From the NCBI RefSeq assembly GCF_056746865.1, contig NZ_CM163382.1: a DNA stretch of 64,000 nt; one strand, given 5' to 3'. The position numbers and the translations under genes were made by a program. The notes below the pieces were generated by a model. That model worked only from the letters and a program-made list of their open reading frames with translations, was not told where the DNA came from and did no database searches. Shown here in pieces: positions 11,075-43,291 of the stretch (the first letter of the stretch is position 1; every line of letters starts with the position of its first letter).

Positions 11075-11152
11075 TAACGTTCTCCTGTGGCTGGAGAACT
11101 ATCATAGCCTGCAAGTGGCCGGAGAGCGAAGGGCTATCCGGCCAGGGTGAAA

Positions 11153-11833
11153 TTATCGCCGCGAGCGCACAATCTGATACCGACGAGTAAAGTACTCAAA
11201 CGGCGCGCTCCACACATGCACCAGTCGGGTGAACGGGAAGAGCAGGAAGATGGTCATTCCCAACACCAGATGCAGGCGGAAAACGAACGCTACGCCGTTA
11301 AGCATTTCTGACGATCCACCACGGAAAGTGACAATGCTTTGCGCCCAACCCACCAGCTTCATCATTTCGCTACCATCAGGATACTGTGCTGAAAACGGTA
11401 TGGTACTTAGCCCCAGCAGACACTGAATCAGCAAAATGCTCATGATGATAATATCCGGCGTAGTGGAAGTGGCACGCACGCGCTGATTAGTCAGCCTGCG
11501 CCACAGCAGTCCTGCGCCGCCAATCAACGTCAATACACCGCAAATACCACCGAGCACCATCGCCATCTGCTGTTTTACCGCCACCGGCAGAAACCACGCG
11601 TACATCCAGTGCGGCGTTAACATGCCGAACAGGTGCCCGAAGAAAATCCCCAAAATGCCGATATGGAACAGATTCGACCATATCACCATCCCGCGTTTAT
11701 CGAGCATCTGACTCGAGGAGGCGCGCCAGGTATACTGCCCGTAGTCGTAGCGCAGCCAGCTGCCGAGGAAAAACACTGTCGCACAAATGTACGGGTAGAT
11801 ATCATAAAAAAAGACGTTCAGATACTGAATCAT
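11153..11833 (-). CDS. narV: Respiratory nitrate reductase 2 gamma subunit (cytochrome b)
   Basis: 226 aa, multi-pass membrane protein with conserved His heme ligands; operon position downstream of narW. Confidence 0.9.
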
Positions 11834-33838: not shown

Positions 33839-34182
33839 AGCGATTCTCCGTGTCTGTGTATTTTTGGTGTCTGCTACGGATCGCAGATATATAAAGCACA
33901 TTCAGCATGGCAAATATTTGCCGCTTCGTTGTTAAGATTAGTCCTGGTTGATAATTTTTATATTATAACACCATGATATTCATAGGGATTGTAATTGGGG
34001 CGATCCGATTAATATTGATACAATATCTTTTGGATTATATATTCCCCGTTATCTATTGTGGGAATTTAATTTAAGTACAGAGATAATGTTTTCGCCGGAT
34101 TTTATTCGGAATATCCTGCTTATCCTCGTGCGGTTTCTCACGTAGTCTATAATTTCCTTTTTAAGCCCACAGGAGAGCAACA

Positions 34183-34614
34183 ATGACAATCCATAAGAAA
34201 GGTCAGGCACACTGGGAAGGCGATATCAAACGCGGGAAGGGAACTGTATCCACCGAGAGCGGCGTGCTGAACCAACAGCCGTATGGATTTAACACGCGTT
34301 TTGAAGGCGAAAAAGGAACCAACCCTGAAGAACTGATTGGCGCAGCGCATGCCGCATGTTTCTCAATGGCGCTTTCATTAATGCTGGGGGAAGCGGGATT
34401 CACGCCAACATCGATTGATACCACCGCCGATGTGTCGCTGGATAAAGTGGATGCAGGTTTTGCGATTACTAAAATCGCACTGAAGAGCGAAGTTGCGGTG
34501 CCGGGTATTGATGCCTCTACTTTTGACGGCATTATCCAGAAAGCAAAAGCAGGATGCCCGGTTTCTCAGGTACTGAAAGCTGAAATTACGCTTGATTACC
34601 AGTTGAAATCGTAA
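34183..34614 (+). CDS. osmC: Osmotically inducible peroxiredoxin OsmC
   Basis: 143 aa, MTIHKKGQAHWEGDIKRGKGTVSTESG..., OsmC/Ohr family. Confidence 0.9.
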   Translation: MTIHKKGQAHWEGDIKRGKGTVSTESGVLNQQPYGFNTRFEGEKGTNPEELIGAAHAACFSMALSLMLGEAGFTPTSIDTTADVSLDKVDAGFAITKIALKSEVAVPGIDASTFDGIIQKAKAGCPVSQVLKAEITLDYQLKS

Positions 34615-34619
34615 AGCGT

Positions 34620-34665
34620 TGCCGGATGACGCGTCAGGCGCGTGATTGCCTGATGCGTTGTTAGC
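34620..34665. repeat. REP-like palindrome / probable bidirectional terminator between convergent osmC and ddpF
   Basis: gccggatgacgcgtcaggcgcgtgattgcctgatgcgt forms an imperfect hairpin with REP-type GCCTGATGCG motif. Confidence 0.4.
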
Positions 34666-34669
34666 GTCT

Positions 34670-35596
34670 CTACAGCGCCCGCCAGCACCGGATCTCACGT
34701 CCGTCCTCCCTTATTGTTAATGATTGCCGGACTTCACATCCGTGGGTTGCCAGAGGGCAGCGTTCGCGGAAAAAACAGCCTTGTGGCAACGTGCGGTTTC
34801 CTGGTAGATCCGTTTTACGTAATGCCCATTCTTCCTCCAGCGGTTTATCAATGGCGGGGAGGGAATCCAGCAATAATCGGGTGTATGGATGTGCCGGAGC
34901 TGTCAGCACCTGTTGCGCGTCTCCTAGTTCCACAATCTGTCCGAGATACATCACCGCCACCCGATCGCTCATATGACGTATCACCGAGACATTGTGTGAA
35001 ATCAGCACATAAGTCAGCCCGCGATTTTCCTGTAGCGTTACCAGTAAATTGAGGATCTGCGCCTGCACGGAGATATCCAGCGCCGAGGTTGGTTCATCAA
35101 GCACAATCACGTCAGGCTGCGAAGAGAGTGCTCTGGCAATGGCGATACGTTGCCGCTGCCCGCCTGAGAACGCATGAGGCAAGCGATCGAGATACTCCGG
35201 ACGAATACCCACCTGCACAGCCAGCTCCTCTGCCAACGCTCGCCGCTGTTGTTCACTACTACGCTTAGCTATCCAGAGCGGTTCTGTGATGATGCGCCAC
35301 ACCGGTAAGCGCGGATTGAGCGAAGAGAGCGGGTCCTGAAACACCATCTGCATAATGCGTTGTGATCTTGAACGGATGTACTGCCCGTGGCTCGGTTGCA
35401 GCATACCCATTAAAAGCTGTGCGAGGGTGCTTTTGCCGCAGCCTGACTCACCGACGATCCCTAAGGTTTCACTACGACGGATCTGTAAATCAATACCATT
35501 GATGGCATGAACATGTTCCGTAGTTTTACCAAGCCAGTTTTTTCGGGCCGGGAAATTGATATGGACGTCGCGTAACGTTAATAACGTGTCAGACAC
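34670..35596 (-). CDS. ddpF: D,D-dipeptide ABC transporter ATP-binding protein
   Basis: Walker A GESGCGKST, ABC signature LSGGQRQR; 308 aa if started at GTG 35596 (ORF-track extension to 35650 rejected). Confidence 0.8.
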   Translation of the reverse strand: MSDTLLTLRDVHINFPARKNWLGKTTEHVHAINGIDLQIRRSETLGIVGESGCGKSTLAQLLMGMLQPSHGQYIRSRSQRIMQMVFQDPLSSLNPRLPVWRIITEPLWIAKRSSEQQRRALAEELAVQVGIRPEYLDRLPHAFSGGQRQRIAIARALSSQPDVIVLDEPTSALDISVQAQILNLLVTLQENRGLTYVLISHNVSVIRHMSDRVAVMYLGQIVELGDAQQVLTAPAHPYTRLLLDSLPAIDKPLEEEWALRKTDLPGNRTLPQGCFFRERCPLATHGCEVRQSLTIREDGREIRCWRAL

Positions 35597-36575
35597 TAAT
35601 GACCTCCTGCTGAGGATACCAACAGGCGCAGCGGTGGTTGTTGTCACCATACGCTGTTAGCGCCGGGACGTTTTCACACTGTGCACCTGCCGCATAGCAA
35701 CGATCGCGAAAAGCGCAGCCGTCAGGCAAATGGGTGAGGTTTGGTACCGTCCCCGGAATAGCGGGTAATGGCTGGCGCGGTATTCCATGTTCCGGTGCGC
35801 ATTGCAGCAAACCAATGGTATACGGATGCCGGGGATGATGGATAACGTCTGCCGTCACGCCGCTCTCAATCACGCTTCCGGCATACATCACGTAAACGCT
35901 ATCGCACAGTTGCGACACCACGGCCATATCATGGCTGATGAACAGTACCGCAGTTCCACTGGCGCGGGCTTTATGTTTAAGCAGACGCAGTACCTGCAAC
36001 TGTACCGTGACGTCCAGCGCCGTAGTCGGTTCGTCGGCAATAATCAATTGCGGCTCGCAGGAGAATGCCAGCGCAATCATTACCCGCTGTCGCATACCAC
36101 CTGAAAGCTCAAACGGATAGCGCGACATAACTTCCACGGCATCCGGGATTTGCATCTCTTCCAGCAGGGCAATCGCTTTAGCTCTGGCTTCCCGACGACT
36201 TTTTGGTTGATGATGGCGGATCACGTCCATCATCTGAAGACCTATTCGACGTGTCGGATTAAGGGCGGTCATCGGTTCCTGAAAGATCATCGCCACTCGT
36301 GCGCCGCGCCACTGACGAAGCTGTTTTTCCCGAGCGTTAAGAGCATCTTCTCCCAGCAGTGAAATATGTCCCCGATGTACGCAATAACTGCCCGTCGGTA
36401 ACAGACGCATAATCAACATTGCAGTGACTGATTTACCCGAGCCGGATTCTCCCACCAGACCGACAATTTCACCGCGGTTGATTTTCAATGACACATTGTT
36501 GAGCGCGTGAACATCACCGTTAAAACCGGGGAAACTCAAATGCAGTTGTTGAATGTCCAGAACGGGTTGGGTCAT
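35589..36575 (-). CDS. ddpD: D,D-dipeptide ABC transporter ATP-binding protein
   Basis: 328 aa; Walker A GESGSGKS, LSGGMRQR signature. Confidence 0.85.
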   Translation of the reverse strand: MTQPVLDIQQLHLSFPGFNGDVHALNNVSLKINRGEIVGLVGESGSGKSVTAMLIMRLLPTGSYCVHRGHISLLGEDALNAREKQLRQWRGARVAMIFQEPMTALNPTRRIGLQMMDVIRHHQPKSRREARAKAIALLEEMQIPDAVEVMSRYPFELSGGMRQRVMIALAFSCEPQLIIADEPTTALDVTVQLQVLRLLKHKARASGTAVLFISHDMAVVSQLCDSVYVMYAGSVIESGVTADVIHHPRHPYTIGLLQCAPEHGIPRQPLPAIPGTVPNLTHLPDGCAFRDRCYAAGAQCENVPALTAYGDNNHRCACWYPQQEVISV

Positions 36576-37468
36576 GACTGCTTTCCTCCTGCTTTCGGGT
36601 CAAGCAGATCGCGAATACCATCACCAAAGAGATTAAACCCGACGGCGGTAAGCAAAATCGCTGCCCCCGGAAATGCGCAATACCACCATTGATCGAGCAC
36701 ATAGTTGCGACCATTCGCCACCATCGCCCCCCATTCAGCACTTGGTTGTTGAGCACCCAGGCCAATAAATCCCAACGTGGCGGCCATTAAAATCGCGCTA
36801 CCGATATCCAGCGATGCCTGCACAATCAGCGGCGGCAGGGAGTTACGTAAAATATGCCAGTTGATCAGATGCCAACGCGACGCACCAAAGGTTTTCGCCG
36901 CCTGAACATAGGTATACTGGCGAACAACTAATGTTTGCCCCCGCGCCAGGCGCACATAAAAGGGAATTCGCACAATAGCAATCGCCAGCATGGCGTTAAA
37001 CAAACTCGGCCCGAGAGCGGCTGCCAGTGCCATTGTCAGCACCAGCGAAGGAATCGACAGCATAATGTCCATGATGCGCATGATAATCGCGTCTGCGCGT
37101 CCGCCAAGCACACCGGATAGACACCCGAGTAGCGACCCCATCATACCTGCAATGGCGACCACCACTAATCCGGCGAGAATTGATTGCTGACTGCCGACCA
37201 GTACGCGGCTAAACAGATCGCGTCCCACTTCATCGGTGCCAAACCAGTGCGCCGCAGAAGGCGGCAAAAGGCGGGCGGTTAAATCAATGGCGTTGGGATC
37301 ATGCGTCGCCAGCCACGGTGAAAAAATCATCATCAGTAGCATTAATACAATGATGACTGCGCCGGTCACGGTAAGCGGGCTGCCTTTCAGCATCCATACC
37401 AGTTTTGCACCGTTAAATCGCGTTTGTTTTGGTGGGCGCACGGCTGACGTTTCCTCGCTTAGCATCAT
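36572..37468 (-). CDS. ddpC: D,D-dipeptide ABC transporter permease
   Basis: 298 aa DppC/OppC-type permease; overlapping stop/start with neighbours. Confidence 0.85.
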   Translation of the reverse strand: MMLSEETSAVRPPKQTRFNGAKLVWMLKGSPLTVTGAVIIVLMLLMMIFSPWLATHDPNAIDLTARLLPPSAAHWFGTDEVGRDLFSRVLVGSQQSILAGLVVVAIAGMMGSLLGCLSGVLGGRADAIIMRIMDIMLSIPSLVLTMALAAALGPSLFNAMLAIAIVRIPFYVRLARGQTLVVRQYTYVQAAKTFGASRWHLINWHILRNSLPPLIVQASLDIGSAILMAATLGFIGLGAQQPSAEWGAMVANGRNYVLDQWWYCAFPGAAILLTAVGFNLFGDGIRDLLDPKAGGKQS

Positions 37469-38487
37469 TCACCACCTCCACGTCCGATACGCGGATCAAT
37501 CCACAAATAGAGCAAATCCACCACCAGGTTGACCAGCACATAAGCAAACGAAACCACGACGGCAAATCCCATCACCGCAGGGAAGTCGAGCGCCTGTATT
37601 GATGTCACTACCCATGCCCCCATTCCGGGCCAGGCAAAAACGGTTTCGGTGAGCACTGCGCCATACAACAAATCGCCCAGCGCCAGACCCAATACGGTAA
37701 TCGAAGGGATCAACGCATTGGGTAGCGCATAACATAAAACGATATACCAGCCGGGCAAGCCGCTGGCCCGGGCGGTACGAATGTAATCTTCACTCAATTG
37801 TTCCAGCATAGCTGAGCGGATCTGGCGAGCGACAATTCCCAGGTGAACGAACGCCAGCGTTAATGCCGGTAAGATGAGATGTTGCAGCGCATTGAAGAAG
37901 ACTTCACCGTTGCCTTCAAGCAGCGCATCGAGCAGATAAAAGCCGGTAACGTGCGTTGGTGGATCCAGCCAGTCATCAAGCCTTCCGCCGCCGGGAAGAA
38001 TTTGCAGATGACCATAAAACAGCACAATGACGCCCAGCCCAAGCCAGAACGCAGGTGTGGAGATTCCGGTAATGGCCATTATTCGCACCAGATGATCCAG
38101 CCAGCGATTTCGCCAGACTGCAGAGAGTATGCCCAGCGGGATGCCAATCAGGAGTGCCAGCAGCAGGGCACAAAAAGCCAGTTCCAGCGTCGCCGGGAAA
38201 AATATACGCAACTCTTCCAGCACCGGACGCCCGGTACGAATGGATGTTCCCAGGTCACCCTGAAACAGGTCGCTGACGTAGCGGTAAAACTGTACGTACA
38301 GTGGCTGGTCCAGTCCCAGTTGCTGGCGAATATTATCCACGATAGCATCGCTGGCGCGGTCACCCGCCAGTAACCGCGCCGGATCGCCGGGGATCAGGTG
38401 CGAGATAATAAACGTTATCACACAGACGCCCGCCACCACGAGCACCAGCCCCCAGCAGCGTTGGCGTAAAATACTCCAGAAGGTCAC
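37465..38487 (-). CDS. ddpB: D,D-dipeptide ABC transporter permease
   Basis: 340 aa DppB/OppB-type permease. Confidence 0.85.
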   Translation of the reverse strand: MTFWSILRQRCWGLVLVVAGVCVITFIISHLIPGDPARLLAGDRASDAIVDNIRQQLGLDQPLYVQFYRYVSDLFQGDLGTSIRTGRPVLEELRIFFPATLELAFCALLLALLIGIPLGILSAVWRNRWLDHLVRIMAITGISTPAFWLGLGVIVLFYGHLQILPGGGRLDDWLDPPTHVTGFYLLDALLEGNGEVFFNALQHLILPALTLAFVHLGIVARQIRSAMLEQLSEDYIRTARASGLPGWYIVLCYALPNALIPSITVLGLALGDLLYGAVLTETVFAWPGMGAWVVTSIQALDFPAVMGFAVVVSFAYVLVNLVVDLLYLWIDPRIGRGGGE

Positions 38488-38488
38488 G

Positions 38489-40039
38489 TTATTTACTCAT
38501 GGTATTGATATTGAAGACCTGTTCCAGCATGGGATTGAACACAAAACCTTTCACCTCTTTGTTCATCGCCAGTTGGTAGTTTTTCTGGAACAGGTACACA
38601 TAAGCAGCGTCATCAATGACGATTTTCTGTGCCTGCTGGTAGTCCCGAGTACGCTGCGTCTGGTCGGTGGTCGCTAGCGCATTGCGCAGTAACTTATCGA
38701 CCTCACTGTTTTCATAGAACGAGCGGTTACCCGGCAGACCTTTTTTGTCTGACTCAAACCAGTAATTCATAAACATATACGGGTCGGCAAAATCCGGACT
38801 CCAGTTGCCAATCGCAATGTCATAATCACCTTTTCCCACTCTGTCGCGCATGGTGGCGTTCGCCAGCTTTTCCAGCTTCACGTTGATGCCCAGCTTGTTG
38901 AGACTGGATTGTGTCGCCAGAGCAATAGGCTCCCAGTTCGGATCATTATCAGAATAGAGAAACGTCAGGCTGGTGGGTTTGCTCGTCACTTTATCCCATT
39001 CGGCTTTGGCTTTCGTTTCGTCATGGTTGTATTGCATTGCCGTCGCATCGTATCCCCACATGCCTTCCGGAATCGGGCCGCGCATTTGTTTTCCGTTACC
39101 ACTCAGAATGCCGTTAACCATACCCTGATAATCGGTAGACCAGGAAATGGCCCGACGCAGATCCGCCTGATTAAGTGGCGCTTTGCTGTTATTCAGATAC
39201 AGATAGGTGACGCGCAGTGACGGATACTCTGCCACATTGACTTTGTTTTCCTGCTTCAGTGCGTTGAGTTGATCCACCGGCAGCGCATCGGCAATGTCAA
39301 TGTCGCCACGGGAGAGCTGCAGGCGACGGGAAGCACTTTCACCGATAATTTTTACCGATACCCGTTTGAAATTCGGTTTATTGCCGGGGTAATGCGGATT
39401 TGGCACCAGAACTAATTGCTGACCTTTTTGCCAGCTTTTCAGCATAAACGGTCCGGAGCCAGCGGTATTTTGCGCGAGGAAACCACGGGCATCATCCGCC
39501 GCATGCTCCTTTAAGACCGCCGGATTGATAATGGATGCACCGTCATTCGCCAGCGTGTAGAGGAACGGTGCGAATGGCTGGCTAAGGGTAAACCTCACTG
39601 TATGTTCGTCGGGAGCATCAATCTTTAAATCTTTGGGAAATGCTTCTGCTGGCCCCTGGCCGATTTTTAGTAACCGCTCAAAAGAGAGTTTTACTGCTTC
39701 GGCAGTGACAGGAGTGCCATCGGCAAATTTAGCATTATCCTTCAGGGTGAATGTCCACTCTTTTTGATCGTCAGACGCTTTCCAGCTACTCGCCAGATCG
39801 CCTTCAACGTCGGTTGAGCCTTTATCACCGTCCGTTTTGTACTGAACCAGTCGCTGATAAGACGGGTAGGTCACTGTCCAGTCGTTATTATCAATTGTCA
39901 CCGCTGGGTCGAGGGTTTGTGGGTCGGCAGCTTTACCGATCACCAGCATATCTTTCGGTACGGCGGCGTGCGCAACCGGCATTGTTGTGGCAAGGACGAT
40001 CGCGAGCAATGTAGGACGAAACGAAATCGATCTCTTCAT
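38489..40039 (-). CDS. ddpA: D,D-dipeptide periplasmic binding protein
   Basis: Translation from MKRSISFRPTLLAIVLATTMPVAHAA (signal peptide) gives 516 aa; family 5 SBP. Confidence 0.85.
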   Translation of the reverse strand: MKRSISFRPTLLAIVLATTMPVAHAAVPKDMLVIGKAADPQTLDPAVTIDNNDWTVTYPSYQRLVQYKTDGDKGSTDVEGDLASSWKASDDQKEWTFTLKDNAKFADGTPVTAEAVKLSFERLLKIGQGPAEAFPKDLKIDAPDEHTVRFTLSQPFAPFLYTLANDGASIINPAVLKEHAADDARGFLAQNTAGSGPFMLKSWQKGQQLVLVPNPHYPGNKPNFKRVSVKIIGESASRRLQLSRGDIDIADALPVDQLNALKQENKVNVAEYPSLRVTYLYLNNSKAPLNQADLRRAISWSTDYQGMVNGILSGNGKQMRGPIPEGMWGYDATAMQYNHDETKAKAEWDKVTSKPTSLTFLYSDNDPNWEPIALATQSSLNKLGINVKLEKLANATMRDRVGKGDYDIAIGNWSPDFADPYMFMNYWFESDKKGLPGNRSFYENSEVDKLLRNALATTDQTQRTRDYQQAQKIVIDDAAYVYLFQKNYQLAMNKEVKGFVFNPMLEQVFNINTMSK

Positions 40040-40052
40040 GACAGTTTCCTGA

Positions 40053-40634
40053 TTAACTGGCGTGCTGTGTGCCAGGGGATATAAAACAGGTGAATTGATC
40101 AGCGAGTAGTGGGTAACTCGCTGCCTGGGGTAATTCGAAGTGCCACCATTCGCTCGGGATACCGACAAAGCCACCGCCAGTCATAATCGCATTCAGCAAC
40201 AGCCGATTGCGCTGAGCGGCGGGCGGGACGGAAGGGTGATAAGCATGGGAACGTTCGTGCATTTCATCAAACTCTGCACCCATATCCAGTATGTTCCCGT
40301 GCTCATCACGAAGCGTCAGGTCGATCGCCGTGCCACGGCTGTGATTAGAACCGACCGTCACATCAACAACATATTGCGGGTCTGGGCAGGCTTGCCACAA
40401 CATCGCCTGTGCTTGTTGTGGGCGATACGCATCGTAAATCACCAGTTGTAAGCCTGACAGCTGGGCGATACTGATACTTTTCGCCAGCGCGGTAATCGCA
40501 TCCTTGTGTAACAGACAACGCGCTTGCTGATAAATAGCTTTACCTGTGATGTTATCAGCGCAGGCGTATTTCAATTCGATCTCCAGATCAGGGAAGATCA
40601 CGGCTAAATCAACCAGTTCGGTGGTATCTGACAT
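40053..40634 (-). CDS. ddpX: D-alanyl-D-alanine dipeptidase (VanX homolog)
   Basis: 193 aa; VanX-type Zn motifs SNHSRGTAIDLTL and EWWHFE. Confidence 0.9.
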   Translation of the reverse strand: MSDTTELVDLAVIFPDLEIELKYACADNITGKAIYQQARCLLHKDAITALAKSISIAQLSGLQLVIYDAYRPQQAQAMLWQACPDPQYVVDVTVGSNHSRGTAIDLTLRDEHGNILDMGAEFDEMHERSHAYHPSVPPAAQRNRLLLNAIMTGGGFVGIPSEWWHFELPQAASYPLLADQFTCFISPGTQHAS

Positions 40635-40891
40635 AAACGGTTCCTGTATAAGACAAAAATTGCTGCGCTTTCCGCTTATGCAGATCTCATGCCACGCCGG
40701 GATAAGCGCCAGAATGTTGGCTTAAAGTTATATTTTTTAACTTTTGATCAACATTTGTGCAGCGTAGTGCAGTTTTGGTGCAAGAGGGGAAGTTAAGGAA
40801 GGAATCTCCCGGAATCGTAGCTGAAATCACAGTATTTAAGTGACAGTGTCACGTTAAATGAAAACCCGCGAGTGCGGGCGGGAGAAAATTG

Positions 40892-43291
40892 TCAGATTTT
40901 CAGCGGTAACACGCTGCTAATCCAGCCAGGAATTTCTTCGGCGGGTAGGGGGCGGGAAAAGAAATATCCCTGAATAACGCGACAGTGAATCTTGCGTAGC
41001 ATCTCAAATTGTTCTTTGGTTTCGACGCCTTCTGCCACGACGGTTAAATTGAGGCTTTGCCCAATGCTGGTAATGGCTTCAAGTAAGGCTCGGATGCGTT
41101 TTTCGGTCAGACAACGATCGACAAAGCTTTTGTCAATTTTGATTTCCGTTACCGGAAGACTGACTAAGCGGGATAAACCAGAAAAACCCGTGCCGAAATC
41201 ATCGACAGATAAACCTACGCCCATATCGCGCAGGATCTGAATGCGCTTAAAGATTTCGGTATCGTGTTCCATCATCATGCTTTCCGTGATTTCCACCGTC
41301 AGCTGGTGGCCGTCAATACCCCAGGCTTGCATTGCATCAGACACCTGATTAGGCAGCTGATTACTGCGAAAGTGCAACGCCGACAAGTTAACGGATAACG
41401 CCGGGATATGAATATTCTGGCTACGCCATTCTGCTAACTGACGACAAGCTTCCGCGATGACCCAGCGTCCAATATTTTCGATTTCACCGATCTCTTCTGC
41501 GAGAGGAATAAACCGTGAAGGGGGCACATGACCATGCAGGGGATCGTGCCAGCGAGCAAGGGCTTCGATGCCGTAGAGCTCACCCGTTTCTGCGAAGATT
41601 TGCGGCTGGTAAACCAGTTTTAGTTGGTTATTGCTAATCGCTTCTTTCAGCGCCGCGCCTAAAACCAAACGCTCTTTTACCATTTCGTTCATCGCCGGGC
41701 TGAAGAACTGCCAGCCGTTACCGCCATTCTTGCGAATATAATCCATTGCATTGTGAGCAGTGGAGAGCAGGTAATCGCGGTTTTTACCCACGTCGTAGCT
41801 GATGCCAATGCTCAAGGTGAGCGGGAATGGTTTATCGTCAATCATTATCGGCTTGCTGACCACATTCCGTAGCTCATCGGCGATTTGGGTTATGTTACTG
41901 ACGTCGTTTTCCAGGCTCACGAGGACAAACTGCGTACCTTCGATACGACAGAGATACTGATCCGGTTTGAGTTTTTCACGAAAGCGATTGACCACTTCCA
42001 GCAATGCCTGATCGGCCCACGCATAGCCAAGGCTATCAATCACATCCTGAATATGGTCAACACCGATGAGATACACCACCGGAGAGACGGCTTTGTCGAC
42101 CAGGTCATCGAGGTAATTGTGCAGGTTATTGCGATTTGGCAGACCGGTCATCGGATCAAATTGGATGAGTTGTTCAATATGCTGACGGCTTTTTTCCTGT
42201 TCCAGCGCCAGCGCGGCCATATGCTGGCTGATATCTGCCACGCGTTCGATAAAGGCGCTGGTTTCTGCTCCTGACGAGGTTTTAATTTGCAGGATCCCCG
42301 CAGGCGCACCATCACGCTGACGAATGGTCGCTGACCAGCTTTGCGCATTTTGAACTTCTGCACCGTGCGAAGATGACGCCCAGTGTAGCGGCATCCCGTT
42401 GCGCAGCGCGAACAGCGAAACATGCGATTCGTTGAGTACAGATTCGATGTTACGACAAATAATTTCCCCCATTTCATGAAATGGCGGGCTGCTGCACATG
42501 GCGGCGAGAATATTGCCTTCAAGCTGGCGGATTTGCCGTTCTTCGGTGATATCCGAGAAAGTCATTACCAGGTTCTGCAGATGCGCGAGCACATCATAGA
42601 CCGGGCTGATAGAGGCTTTAATCCAGATTTTTTCACCGGTGCGCGTCAACAGCAGAAATTCGTCCTGATCGCGGGCGGTTTTCCATAGCAACTGTTGTAA
42701 ACGAATGCGGTTATCAGCAGGGAATTCTGGAATGTTCAGGAGTGTATCGGGCTGCATACCGCTGGCTTCGCTAATGCAGTAACCAAACATTTCGGTAAAT
42801 GCACGATTGCACTGCACAATATGGCGTTCCGGATCGAGGACAATCACTGGTCGGTCGAGATGGTCAACGGCAATAATCAATTGTCGGGTCTGTTCTTTTT
42901 GCGCCATTTCTACGCTGGCATCCCGTACCAGCGCCAGGTAATAAACTTTCCCCTCGGCGCTCACTTTCGATAGCGCAAAACGGGTCCAGATTTTACTGCC
43001 GTCTTTTTTCTCCAGCTGCAGCTCCCGACTCATCCCCTCGACGCGCGCTTTACCGCCTTCACGGTTGTGACGGATGTATTCAGGATGCGCGGGACGCAAA
43101 TCCCGCGGAATCAGCATATCAATGTTATTGCCAATAACTTCTTCACGTTTGTACCCCCAGAGCTTCTCTGCGGCGGGGTTGAAAAACATCACTTCATCAT
43201 TTTCGTTAATTAACACCGCGCCCATCATATTTTGCTCAAGGGCGGGGAAAAAAATGCCATCGGCGGCATTATCCGCATCGGTTAGCTTCAT
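40892..43291 (-). CDS. dosP: Heme/oxygen-sensing c-di-GMP phosphodiesterase (PAS-PAS-GGDEF-EAL)
   Basis: Translation from MKLTDADNAADGIFFPALEQN... gives 799 aa; EAL domain motifs (EAL-R, DDFGTG) at C-terminus. Confidence 0.9.
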   Translation of the reverse strand: MKLTDADNAADGIFFPALEQNMMGAVLINENDEVMFFNPAAEKLWGYKREEVIGNNIDMLIPRDLRPAHPEYIRHNREGGKARVEGMSRELQLEKKDGSKIWTRFALSKVSAEGKVYYLALVRDASVEMAQKEQTRQLIIAVDHLDRPVIVLDPERHIVQCNRAFTEMFGYCISEASGMQPDTLLNIPEFPADNRIRLQQLLWKTARDQDEFLLLTRTGEKIWIKASISPVYDVLAHLQNLVMTFSDITEERQIRQLEGNILAAMCSSPPFHEMGEIICRNIESVLNESHVSLFALRNGMPLHWASSSHGAEVQNAQSWSATIRQRDGAPAGILQIKTSSGAETSAFIERVADISQHMAALALEQEKSRQHIEQLIQFDPMTGLPNRNNLHNYLDDLVDKAVSPVVYLIGVDHIQDVIDSLGYAWADQALLEVVNRFREKLKPDQYLCRIEGTQFVLVSLENDVSNITQIADELRNVVSKPIMIDDKPFPLTLSIGISYDVGKNRDYLLSTAHNAMDYIRKNGGNGWQFFSPAMNEMVKERLVLGAALKEAISNNQLKLVYQPQIFAETGELYGIEALARWHDPLHGHVPPSRFIPLAEEIGEIENIGRWVIAEACRQLAEWRSQNIHIPALSVNLSALHFRSNQLPNQVSDAMQAWGIDGHQLTVEITESMMMEHDTEIFKRIQILRDMGVGLSVDDFGTGFSGLSRLVSLPVTEIKIDKSFVDRCLTEKRIRALLEAITSIGQSLNLTVVAEGVETKEQFEMLRKIHCRVIQGYFFSRPLPAEEIPGWISSVLPLKI

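Follow-up and report, generated by a model that had tools for sequence, protein, structure and literature searches.

The ddpXABCDF operon of an Escherichia coli chromosome and the start codon of its last gene

Where does translation of the last gene of the ddpXABCDF operon begin, and what kind of system do its six genes encode? Both questions are raised by a 64,000-nucleotide (nt) stretch of DNA (NCBI RefSeq assembly GCF_056746865.1, contig NZ_CM163382.1; hereafter the window), in which six co-oriented minus-strand genes, all six with intact reading frames, occupy positions 34670–40634. A reading of the window made from its sequence only had assigned these coordinates, which match those of RefSeq, to ddpXABCDF, and had described a tightly coupled, starvation-induced operon that pairs a VanX-homolog dipeptidase with a dipeptide permease for scavenging of cell-wall material. 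The ddp operon is a textbook case of the starvation-controlled recycling of cell-wall building blocks by a relative of VanX, and our analysis leaves this picture unchanged. The explanation that best accounts for all observations together, and in which we have high confidence, is that the locus is the known ddpXABCDF operon, encoding a sigma-54/NtrC-driven, putative D,D-dipeptide importer and a VanX-type dipeptidase, with ddpF starting at the GTG codon at position 35596.

Identity of the operon and the start of ddpF

The assignment of the locus is supported at several levels. Several E. coli chromosomes in RefSeq, annotated with ddpX to ddpF, show 100% DNA identity to a 7.5-kilobase stretch containing 34670–40634, the flanking genes are osmC and dosP, in the window record as in E. 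coli K-12 MG1655, all six products have the length of their K-12 counterparts (with 3–9 amino-acid differences each), and DdpX and DdpC score above the cut-offs of their NCBIfam equivalogs. The locus is the E. coli ddpXABCDF operon, an already known system with nothing new about it, as the earlier reading had it. RefSeq gene coordinates were converted to window coordinates by adding 32499 to the locus coordinate and, read along the minus strand, the genes are ddpX (40053–40634; 193 amino acids, ATG start), annotated by RefSeq and recognized by Pfam Peptidase_M15 and NCBIfam NF007557; ddpA (38489–40039 by RefSeq coordinates; 516 amino acids, ATG), for a periplasmic family-5 solute-binding protein (Pfam SBP_bac_5, 1e-101); the permease genes ddpB (37465–38487; 340 amino acids, GTG; Pfam BPD_transp_1 and BPD_transp_1_N) and ddpC (36572–37468; 298 amino acids, ATG; Pfam OppC_N and BPD_transp_1); and the genes of two ATPase subunits, both with Pfam ABC_tran and oligo_HPY domains, ddpD (35589–36575; 328 amino acids, ATG) and ddpF (34670–35596; 308 amino acids, GTG, as annotated by RefSeq and in K-12). 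Nucleotide identity to K-12 is 96.0–97.9% per gene, the divergence being 3.5–4% in most genes, and the codons that differ comprise 161 synonymous and 31 non-synonymous ones, which indicates purifying selection. An Rfam scan of 34000–41500 matched no RNA family.

The start of ddpF needs closer attention, since two lengths can be read from the same letters: the mechanical longest open reading frame (ORF) begins at ATG 35650 and yields 326 amino acids, whereas RefSeq, on the identical sequence, annotates the 308-residue form from GTG 35596. The sequence-only reading had held the shorter form to be correct and the ORF-track start to be an over-extension, and had named an alignment to K-12 DdpF and an inspection of the ribosome-binding site as checks. 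Both bear it out. The two DdpF proteins are identical at 301 of 308 residues in an alignment that begins at the GTG codon, and a Shine-Dalgarno sequence, AGGAGG (35603–35608, minus strand), sits in the last part of ddpD and precedes GTG 35596 by 6 nt. Could the ribosome nevertheless initiate at ATG 35650 in this strain, instead of or besides the GTG, and so add 18 residues to DdpF? The frame is indeed open from this codon in the window allele, and ATG as such initiates translation better than GTG does, but ATG 35650 is not preceded by a Shine-Dalgarno sequence: the energy of the duplex with the anti-Shine-Dalgarno sequence is −1.7 kcal/mol there and −11.0 kcal/mol at the GTG. Energies of −9 kcal/mol or lower occur at only 1.4% of the operon positions, and AGGAGG is kept upstream of ddpF in 10 of 10 E. 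coli alleles examined.

A comparison of alleles speaks further against initiation at the upstream ATG. In K-12, a TAA stop codon stands in the ddpF frame immediately 5′ of the GTG (ggaggttaTAAGTG), at the place where the window has TTA, and the same TAA is found in O157:H7 and in three other majority-type alleles sampled; since it directly precedes the GTG, it closes the extension frame and no extension of ddpF is possible in K-12-type alleles. The allele state was verified in 10 sequences, and the share of the K-12-type (TAA) allele, estimated from 39 evenly spaced ranking rows, is ~82% against ~18%, that is, about four-fifths of the ddp-positive genomes. Among the alleles sampled, that of the window is the only one with the A that makes ATG 35650; in the four close relatives sampled (97.7–98.9% identical) the frame is open and the codon at that position is GTG. 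The nucleotide that creates the ATG is also the one behind the C309Y polymorphism of DdpD. Judged from the alleles compared, ATG 35650 is therefore a private polymorphism of the window allele inside ddpD.

The 18 codons added by the ORF track (35597–35650, minus strand) behave as coding in the ddpD frame only and as non-coding in that of ddpF. Six differences from K-12 fall in these 54 nt, four of them synonymous and two non-synonymous when read as ddpD, whereas the extension frame counts 0 synonymous and 6 non-synonymous changes, a stop among them. Beyond E. coli, the orthologous ddpF codon is an ATG with an 8-nt overlap with ddpD (ATGTCTGA) at three loci, those of Citrobacter farmeri, a C. 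freundii-type contig and an Escherichia-like contig, and in C. farmeri no in-frame start codon was found upstream of it. All 13 aligned DdpF homologs begin at the alignment column of GTG 35596, this codon is also where the similarity to the structures of E. coli DppF and OppF sets in, and the 18 additional residues match nothing, either in these proteins or in any ortholog. Taken together, the strength of the Shine-Dalgarno sequence, the TAA of K-12-type alleles, the substitution pattern and the ATG of Citrobacter strongly support GTG 35596 as the true start of ddpF, ATG 35650 not being a start codon, and we regard translation of a 326-residue DdpF from the latter as very improbable. The matter is one of annotation hygiene: a strain-specific TTA in place of TAA, together with the A that creates the ATG, makes a longest-ORF track over-extend ddpF, and the comparison of alleles and genera resolves the true start, with little importance beyond annotation.

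The sequence-only reading had also made ddpF the GTG-start gene of the operon and had placed overlaps at every junction. The first point holds for ddpF, which is not unique in this, as ddpB has the same start codon in both the window and K-12. The second does not stand: the distances are +13 nt from ddpX to ddpA, +1 nt from ddpA to ddpB, −4 nt from ddpB to ddpC, −4 nt from ddpC to ddpD and −8 nt from ddpD to ddpF, so that only three of the five junctions overlap. The overlap of ddpB and ddpC is the 4-nt ATGA, that of ddpC and ddpD also measures 4 nt, and the 8 nt shared by ddpD and ddpF, GTGTCTGA, lie across the ddpD stop codon. An overlap of ddpX and ddpA arises only with an over-extended ddpA ORF of 561 amino acids that starts inside ddpX, at GTG 40174. 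We rejected this start (extension 40040–40174, minus strand), for which the Shine-Dalgarno energy is −1.5 kcal/mol against −4.3 kcal/mol at ATG 40039, the start in RefSeq and K-12; the longer form would also bury within the protein the Sec-type signal peptide (MKRSISFRPTLLAIVLATTMPVAHA|A) that we identified by eye at the N-terminus of DdpA (...PVAHA|A).

The GTG of ddpB sits 1 nt past the TAA stop of ddpA (38485–38491, minus strand) and shows no recognizable Shine-Dalgarno sequence (−2.2 kcal/mol). From these two features, ddpB is probably translated by reinitiation, in a termination-reinitiation coupling with ddpA. Its start codon is GTG in the window, in K-12 and in the Escherichia-like third lineage, and ATG in two Citrobacter loci.

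The dipeptidase and the importer

What do the six genes encode? DdpX contains a Peptidase_M15 domain (PF01427, E-value 3e-79) and passes the NCBIfam equivalog for D-Ala-D-Ala dipeptidase, NF007557, with 332 bits against a cut-off of 176, whereas it stays below the VanX equivalog for vancomycin resistance, NF033115 (93 bits against a cut-off of 320); by these profile scores it is a VanX homolog and not a VanX equivalog. Residues R71, H98, D105, E162 and H165 align with R71, H116, D123, E181 and H184 of VanX (PDB 1R44), and DdpX thereby keeps the His-Asp-His zinc ligands of the M15 family (SxHxxGxAxD ... ExxH), the catalytic Glu and Arg71. The description of DdpX as a VanX-homolog dipeptidase is thus sustained by the domain and by the conserved zinc and catalytic residues, its role in the hydrolysis of D-Ala-D-Ala being taken from the literature. 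No signal peptide was found in DdpX. Unregulated hydrolysis of D-Ala-D-Ala has been described as potentially lethal (PMC6403190), which fits a tight, starvation-only expression of ddpX.

With its family-5 binding protein, a pair of BPD_transp_1 permeases and a pair of ABC_tran/oligo_HPY ATPases, the importer has the composition of Opp/Dpp-type (PepT) transporters, and both DdpD and DdpF carry the Walker A, signature and Walker B motifs. In the mechanism that we propose, periplasmic DdpA would capture a D,D-dipeptide, taken as D-Ala-D-Ala released from peptidoglycan, DdpB and DdpC would form the membrane channel, and DdpD and DdpF an ATPase heterodimer powering import; in the cytoplasm, zinc-dependent, VanX-type DdpX would split D-Ala-D-Ala into two D-alanines, to be catabolised for nitrogen and carbon. 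As a side observation, residue 42 of DdpF (35470–35475) is Ser in the window and Gly in K-12 and nearly all aligned homologs. This G42S change (RRGETLGIVGESG to RRSETLG...) lies seven residues before Walker A, and is unusual at a nearly invariant column.

How firmly can the importer be tied to D-Ala-D-Ala? DdpC passes NCBIfam NF007376, named "D,D-dipeptide ABC transporter permease" (ABC standing for ATP-binding cassette), with 623 bits against a cut-off of 434. Other observations pull away from this substrate: none of DdpA, DdpB, DdpD and DdpF reaches an NCBIfam equivalog cut-off, the best sub-threshold NCBIfam match of DdpA is NikA, and all five transporter subunits are "putative" in the RefSeq annotation of K-12. 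Our literature search found no structure or transport data for the Ddp importer. The importer might then carry other dipeptides, D-amino-acid peptides or a small ligand, its pairing with DdpX being only loosely functional. This alternative draws on the same "putative" labels and on DdpA, which has no substrate-specific NCBIfam match and has NikA and DppA as its best partial matches; moreover, in the experiments of Lessard and Walsh (1999), the general Dpp permease reportedly accounted for at least a part of D-Ala-D-Ala uptake. It has to face the name of the DdpC equivalog, the order of six genes with the dipeptidase first, conserved together with the junction architecture in Citrobacter and another lineage, which argues for a shared function of DdpX and the importer, and the single NtrC/RpoN promoter that co-regulates the ddp genes (PMC8743547). 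We consider a substrate other than D-Ala-D-Ala unlikely. Of the scavenging system in the sequence-only reading, then, the pairing of the genes and their domains stood, while the substrate of the importer is "putative" and the scavenging function partly inferred.

The C-terminal domains of both ATPases hold four cysteines each, Cys287, Cys293, Cys300 and Cys318 in DdpD (35589–35720) and Cys274, Cys280, Cys287 and Cys304 in DdpF (34670–34790). Mapped on PDB sequences, both sets align with Cys284, Cys290, Cys297 and Cys315 of E. coli DppD, which are the ligands of a [4Fe-4S] cluster (PMC12136057), and the four cysteines are invariant across 15 aligned sequences. We infer that DdpD and DdpF would bind a [4Fe-4S] cluster in the manner of DppD and DppF. 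The C309Y change of the window strain does not fall on a cluster-ligand cysteine of DdpD. In E. coli, this four-cysteine site keeps the DppBCDF complex together. A further step, which we offer as speculation and judge rather improbable, is that the assembly of the importer depends on the iron-sulfur cluster and that dipeptide uptake is thereby redox- or oxygen-gated; the same low probability applies, separately, to a minor 326-residue DdpF isoform from ATG 35650. If gating were true, the assembly of a starvation-induced importer would hinge on an oxidant-sensitive cluster, and the position of ddp, immediately downstream of dosCP, an operon for oxygen sensing, would be notable.

Promoter, regulation and transcript ends

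By which promoter would the operon be transcribed? A pattern search located a sigma-54 −24/−12 element, TGGCATGAGATCTGCA (GG-N10-GC), at 40679–40694 on the minus strand, 45–60 nt upstream of the ddpX ATG and with one mismatch to TGGCAY-N5-TTGCW, its core being identical in K-12. About 75–100 nt upstream of this element, three TGCAC repeats (TGCACCAAAACTGCACTACGCTGCAC; 40757–40782, minus strand), 11 and 10 nt apart, were read from the sequence; they too are identical in K-12, and we regard them as candidate NtrC enhancer sites. The region upstream of ddpX (276 nt; ddpX–dosP intergenic stretch 40635–40891) is 99% identical to K-12 (locus extract 11078–11334), and is thus more conserved than the adjacent coding sequence (96–98%), with the promoter motifs unchanged.

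These elements fit the published control of the operon by NtrC and RpoN in nitrogen starvation. RpoN holoenzyme and NtrC bind a ddpX promoter probe in vitro, and nitrogen depletion raises ddpX mRNA 104-fold and ddpF mRNA 2.2-fold (PMC8743547). An NtrC peak in chromatin immunoprecipitation sequencing has been assigned to ddpXABCDF (PMC4066584), and ddpXA are among the RpoS-dependent stationary-phase genes of strain EDL933 (PMC2907692). The term "starvation-induced" of the earlier reading finds its support in this literature. Transcription would start at the sigma-54 promoter, activated by NtrC in nitrogen starvation, and proceed leftward on the minus strand; expression in stationary phase would also depend on RpoS. 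Two observations count against this picture. The sigma-54 motif occurs 6 times in the whole window, where 6.2 occurrences are expected by chance, so that support for the −24/−12 element rests on its position and on the published dependence on RpoN and NtrC (PMC8743547); and, from the 2.2-fold response of ddpF against the 104-fold response of ddpX, the distal ddp genes may be weakly expressed or partly uncoupled. A scan for sigma-70 promoters found 1 site, where 6.3 were expected, and nothing of relevance.

At the upstream border, the terminator scan detected a terminator-like hairpin with a T-run at the end of dosP (40865–40882, minus strand), which is conserved in K-12; this predicted element would shield the ddpX promoter from transcription of dosCP. 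After ddpF, the same scan found no canonical terminator. The 55-nt spacer between the convergent osmC and ddpF genes (34615–34669) contains a GC-rich palindrome (GCCGGATGACGCGTCAGGCGCG...) with no T-run, and its RNA folds with −19.8 kcal/mol (z = −2.3). The palindrome, which resembles repetitive extragenic palindromes (REP), is possibly a transcript-end hairpin, not a canonical T-run terminator.

One published phenotype touches this border. Fragments carrying ddpX, and likewise those carrying dosP (pdeO), conferred resistance to phage N4 in a Dub-seq overexpression screen (PMC7553319). As ddpX and dosP are neighbours, the signal of ddpX might be linked to dosP, or it might reflect an independent effect on the cell wall.

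Operon loss and comparison with known systems

Is the operon still a working unit in this strain? The ddpD/ddpF junction was found in 4292 of 5426 complete E. coli genomes and the flanks in 5412, the ddp operon being absent from ~21% of complete genomes. According to a pan-genome model analysis, 82% of E. coli have the enzyme, while E. albertii and E. fergusonii lack it (PMC11226097). In strain AR_0081 (NZ_CP027534.1; 950–1020 of the locus extract), the segment corresponding to ~34658–40820, promoter included, is replaced by ~65 nt, and this filler holds a relic of 25 nt from within ddpF (35100–35124; 92% identity, E = 8e-5), which matches the corresponding part of Citrobacter ddpF as well. 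The relic indicates that the empty state arose by deletion, the operon not having been merely never acquired. The osmC-proximal part of the osmC–ddpF spacer is kept in ddp-less strains, the deletion boundary being at the edge of the spacer.

Such losses show that the operon is dispensable and, with the frameshifted ddpF variants present in the protein database (P0033, P0041), they could suggest that the window strain carries a decaying remnant, the ambiguity about the ddpF start being a sign of early pseudogenisation. The window itself offers a different picture: the six reading frames are intact, synonymous codon differences from K-12 outnumber non-synonymous ones 161 to 31, the catalytic, Walker and cysteine motifs are intact and the promoter is 99% conserved with K-12. 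Decay in this strain is, in our view, scarcely credible, and an intact ddpXABCDF operon is the reading we retain.

The closest of the known systems is the K-12 operon (b1488–b1483), which has the same gene order, position, product lengths and start codons (GTG for ddpB and ddpF) and, as implied by the annotated coordinates, the same junction distances, in addition to the identical sigma-54 core and TGCAC repeats. The window differs from it in having TTA and not TAA before the ddpF GTG, in DdpD C309Y and in DdpF G42S next to Walker A; the TTA is the reason why the misleading 326-residue ORF appears only in the window allele.

In Citrobacter (C. farmeri CP011132 and the C. freundii-type contig) the same six genes are present, with DdpF 79–81% identical, and the pattern of gap, gap, overlap, overlap and 8-nt overlap is common to the window, the two Citrobacter loci and the third lineage. 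These orthologs were found by a protein search and an exact-protein contig look-up. A degenerate DNA-pattern scan of the genome contig collection for the N-terminal DdpF peptide TLRDVHINFP gave no match; the Citrobacter proteins carry LQDVHVNF in its place, and one possible reason for the null result is the distribution of the enzyme, with its presence in ~82% of E. coli and absence from E. albertii and E. fergusonii (PMC11226097). The C. farmeri operon also adjoins osmC, as in the window. The Citrobacter operons differ in that all six ddp genes start with ATG, in that the upstream neighbour is not dosP, and in an extra gene immediately upstream of ddpX, for a 288-residue RpiR-like (HTH_6) regulator (1531–2397 and 1514–2380 of the two Citrobacter locus extracts), which E. 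coli does not have.

With VanX of the enterococcal vanHAX cluster (PDB 1R44), DdpX shares the Peptidase_M15 fold family, the zinc ligands, the catalytic Glu, Arg71 and D-Ala-D-Ala hydrolysis, whereas ddpX is linked to the genes of an ABC importer and not to vanH and vanA, and is under starvation control and not under that of VanRS. With E. coli DppABCDF (PDB 8Z1V–8Z1Z), the Ddp importer shares the same five-component architecture and the oligo_HPY C-terminal domains of the ATPases. The Ddp subunits are paralogs of DppABCDF and OppABCDF that fall far below the equivalog cut-offs of both, with DdpA, for instance, scoring 175 bits against a Dpp cut-off of 1005 and DdpF 269 against 660. Unlike the Dpp genes, those of the Ddp importer are preceded by a dipeptidase gene and are controlled by NtrC and sigma-54.

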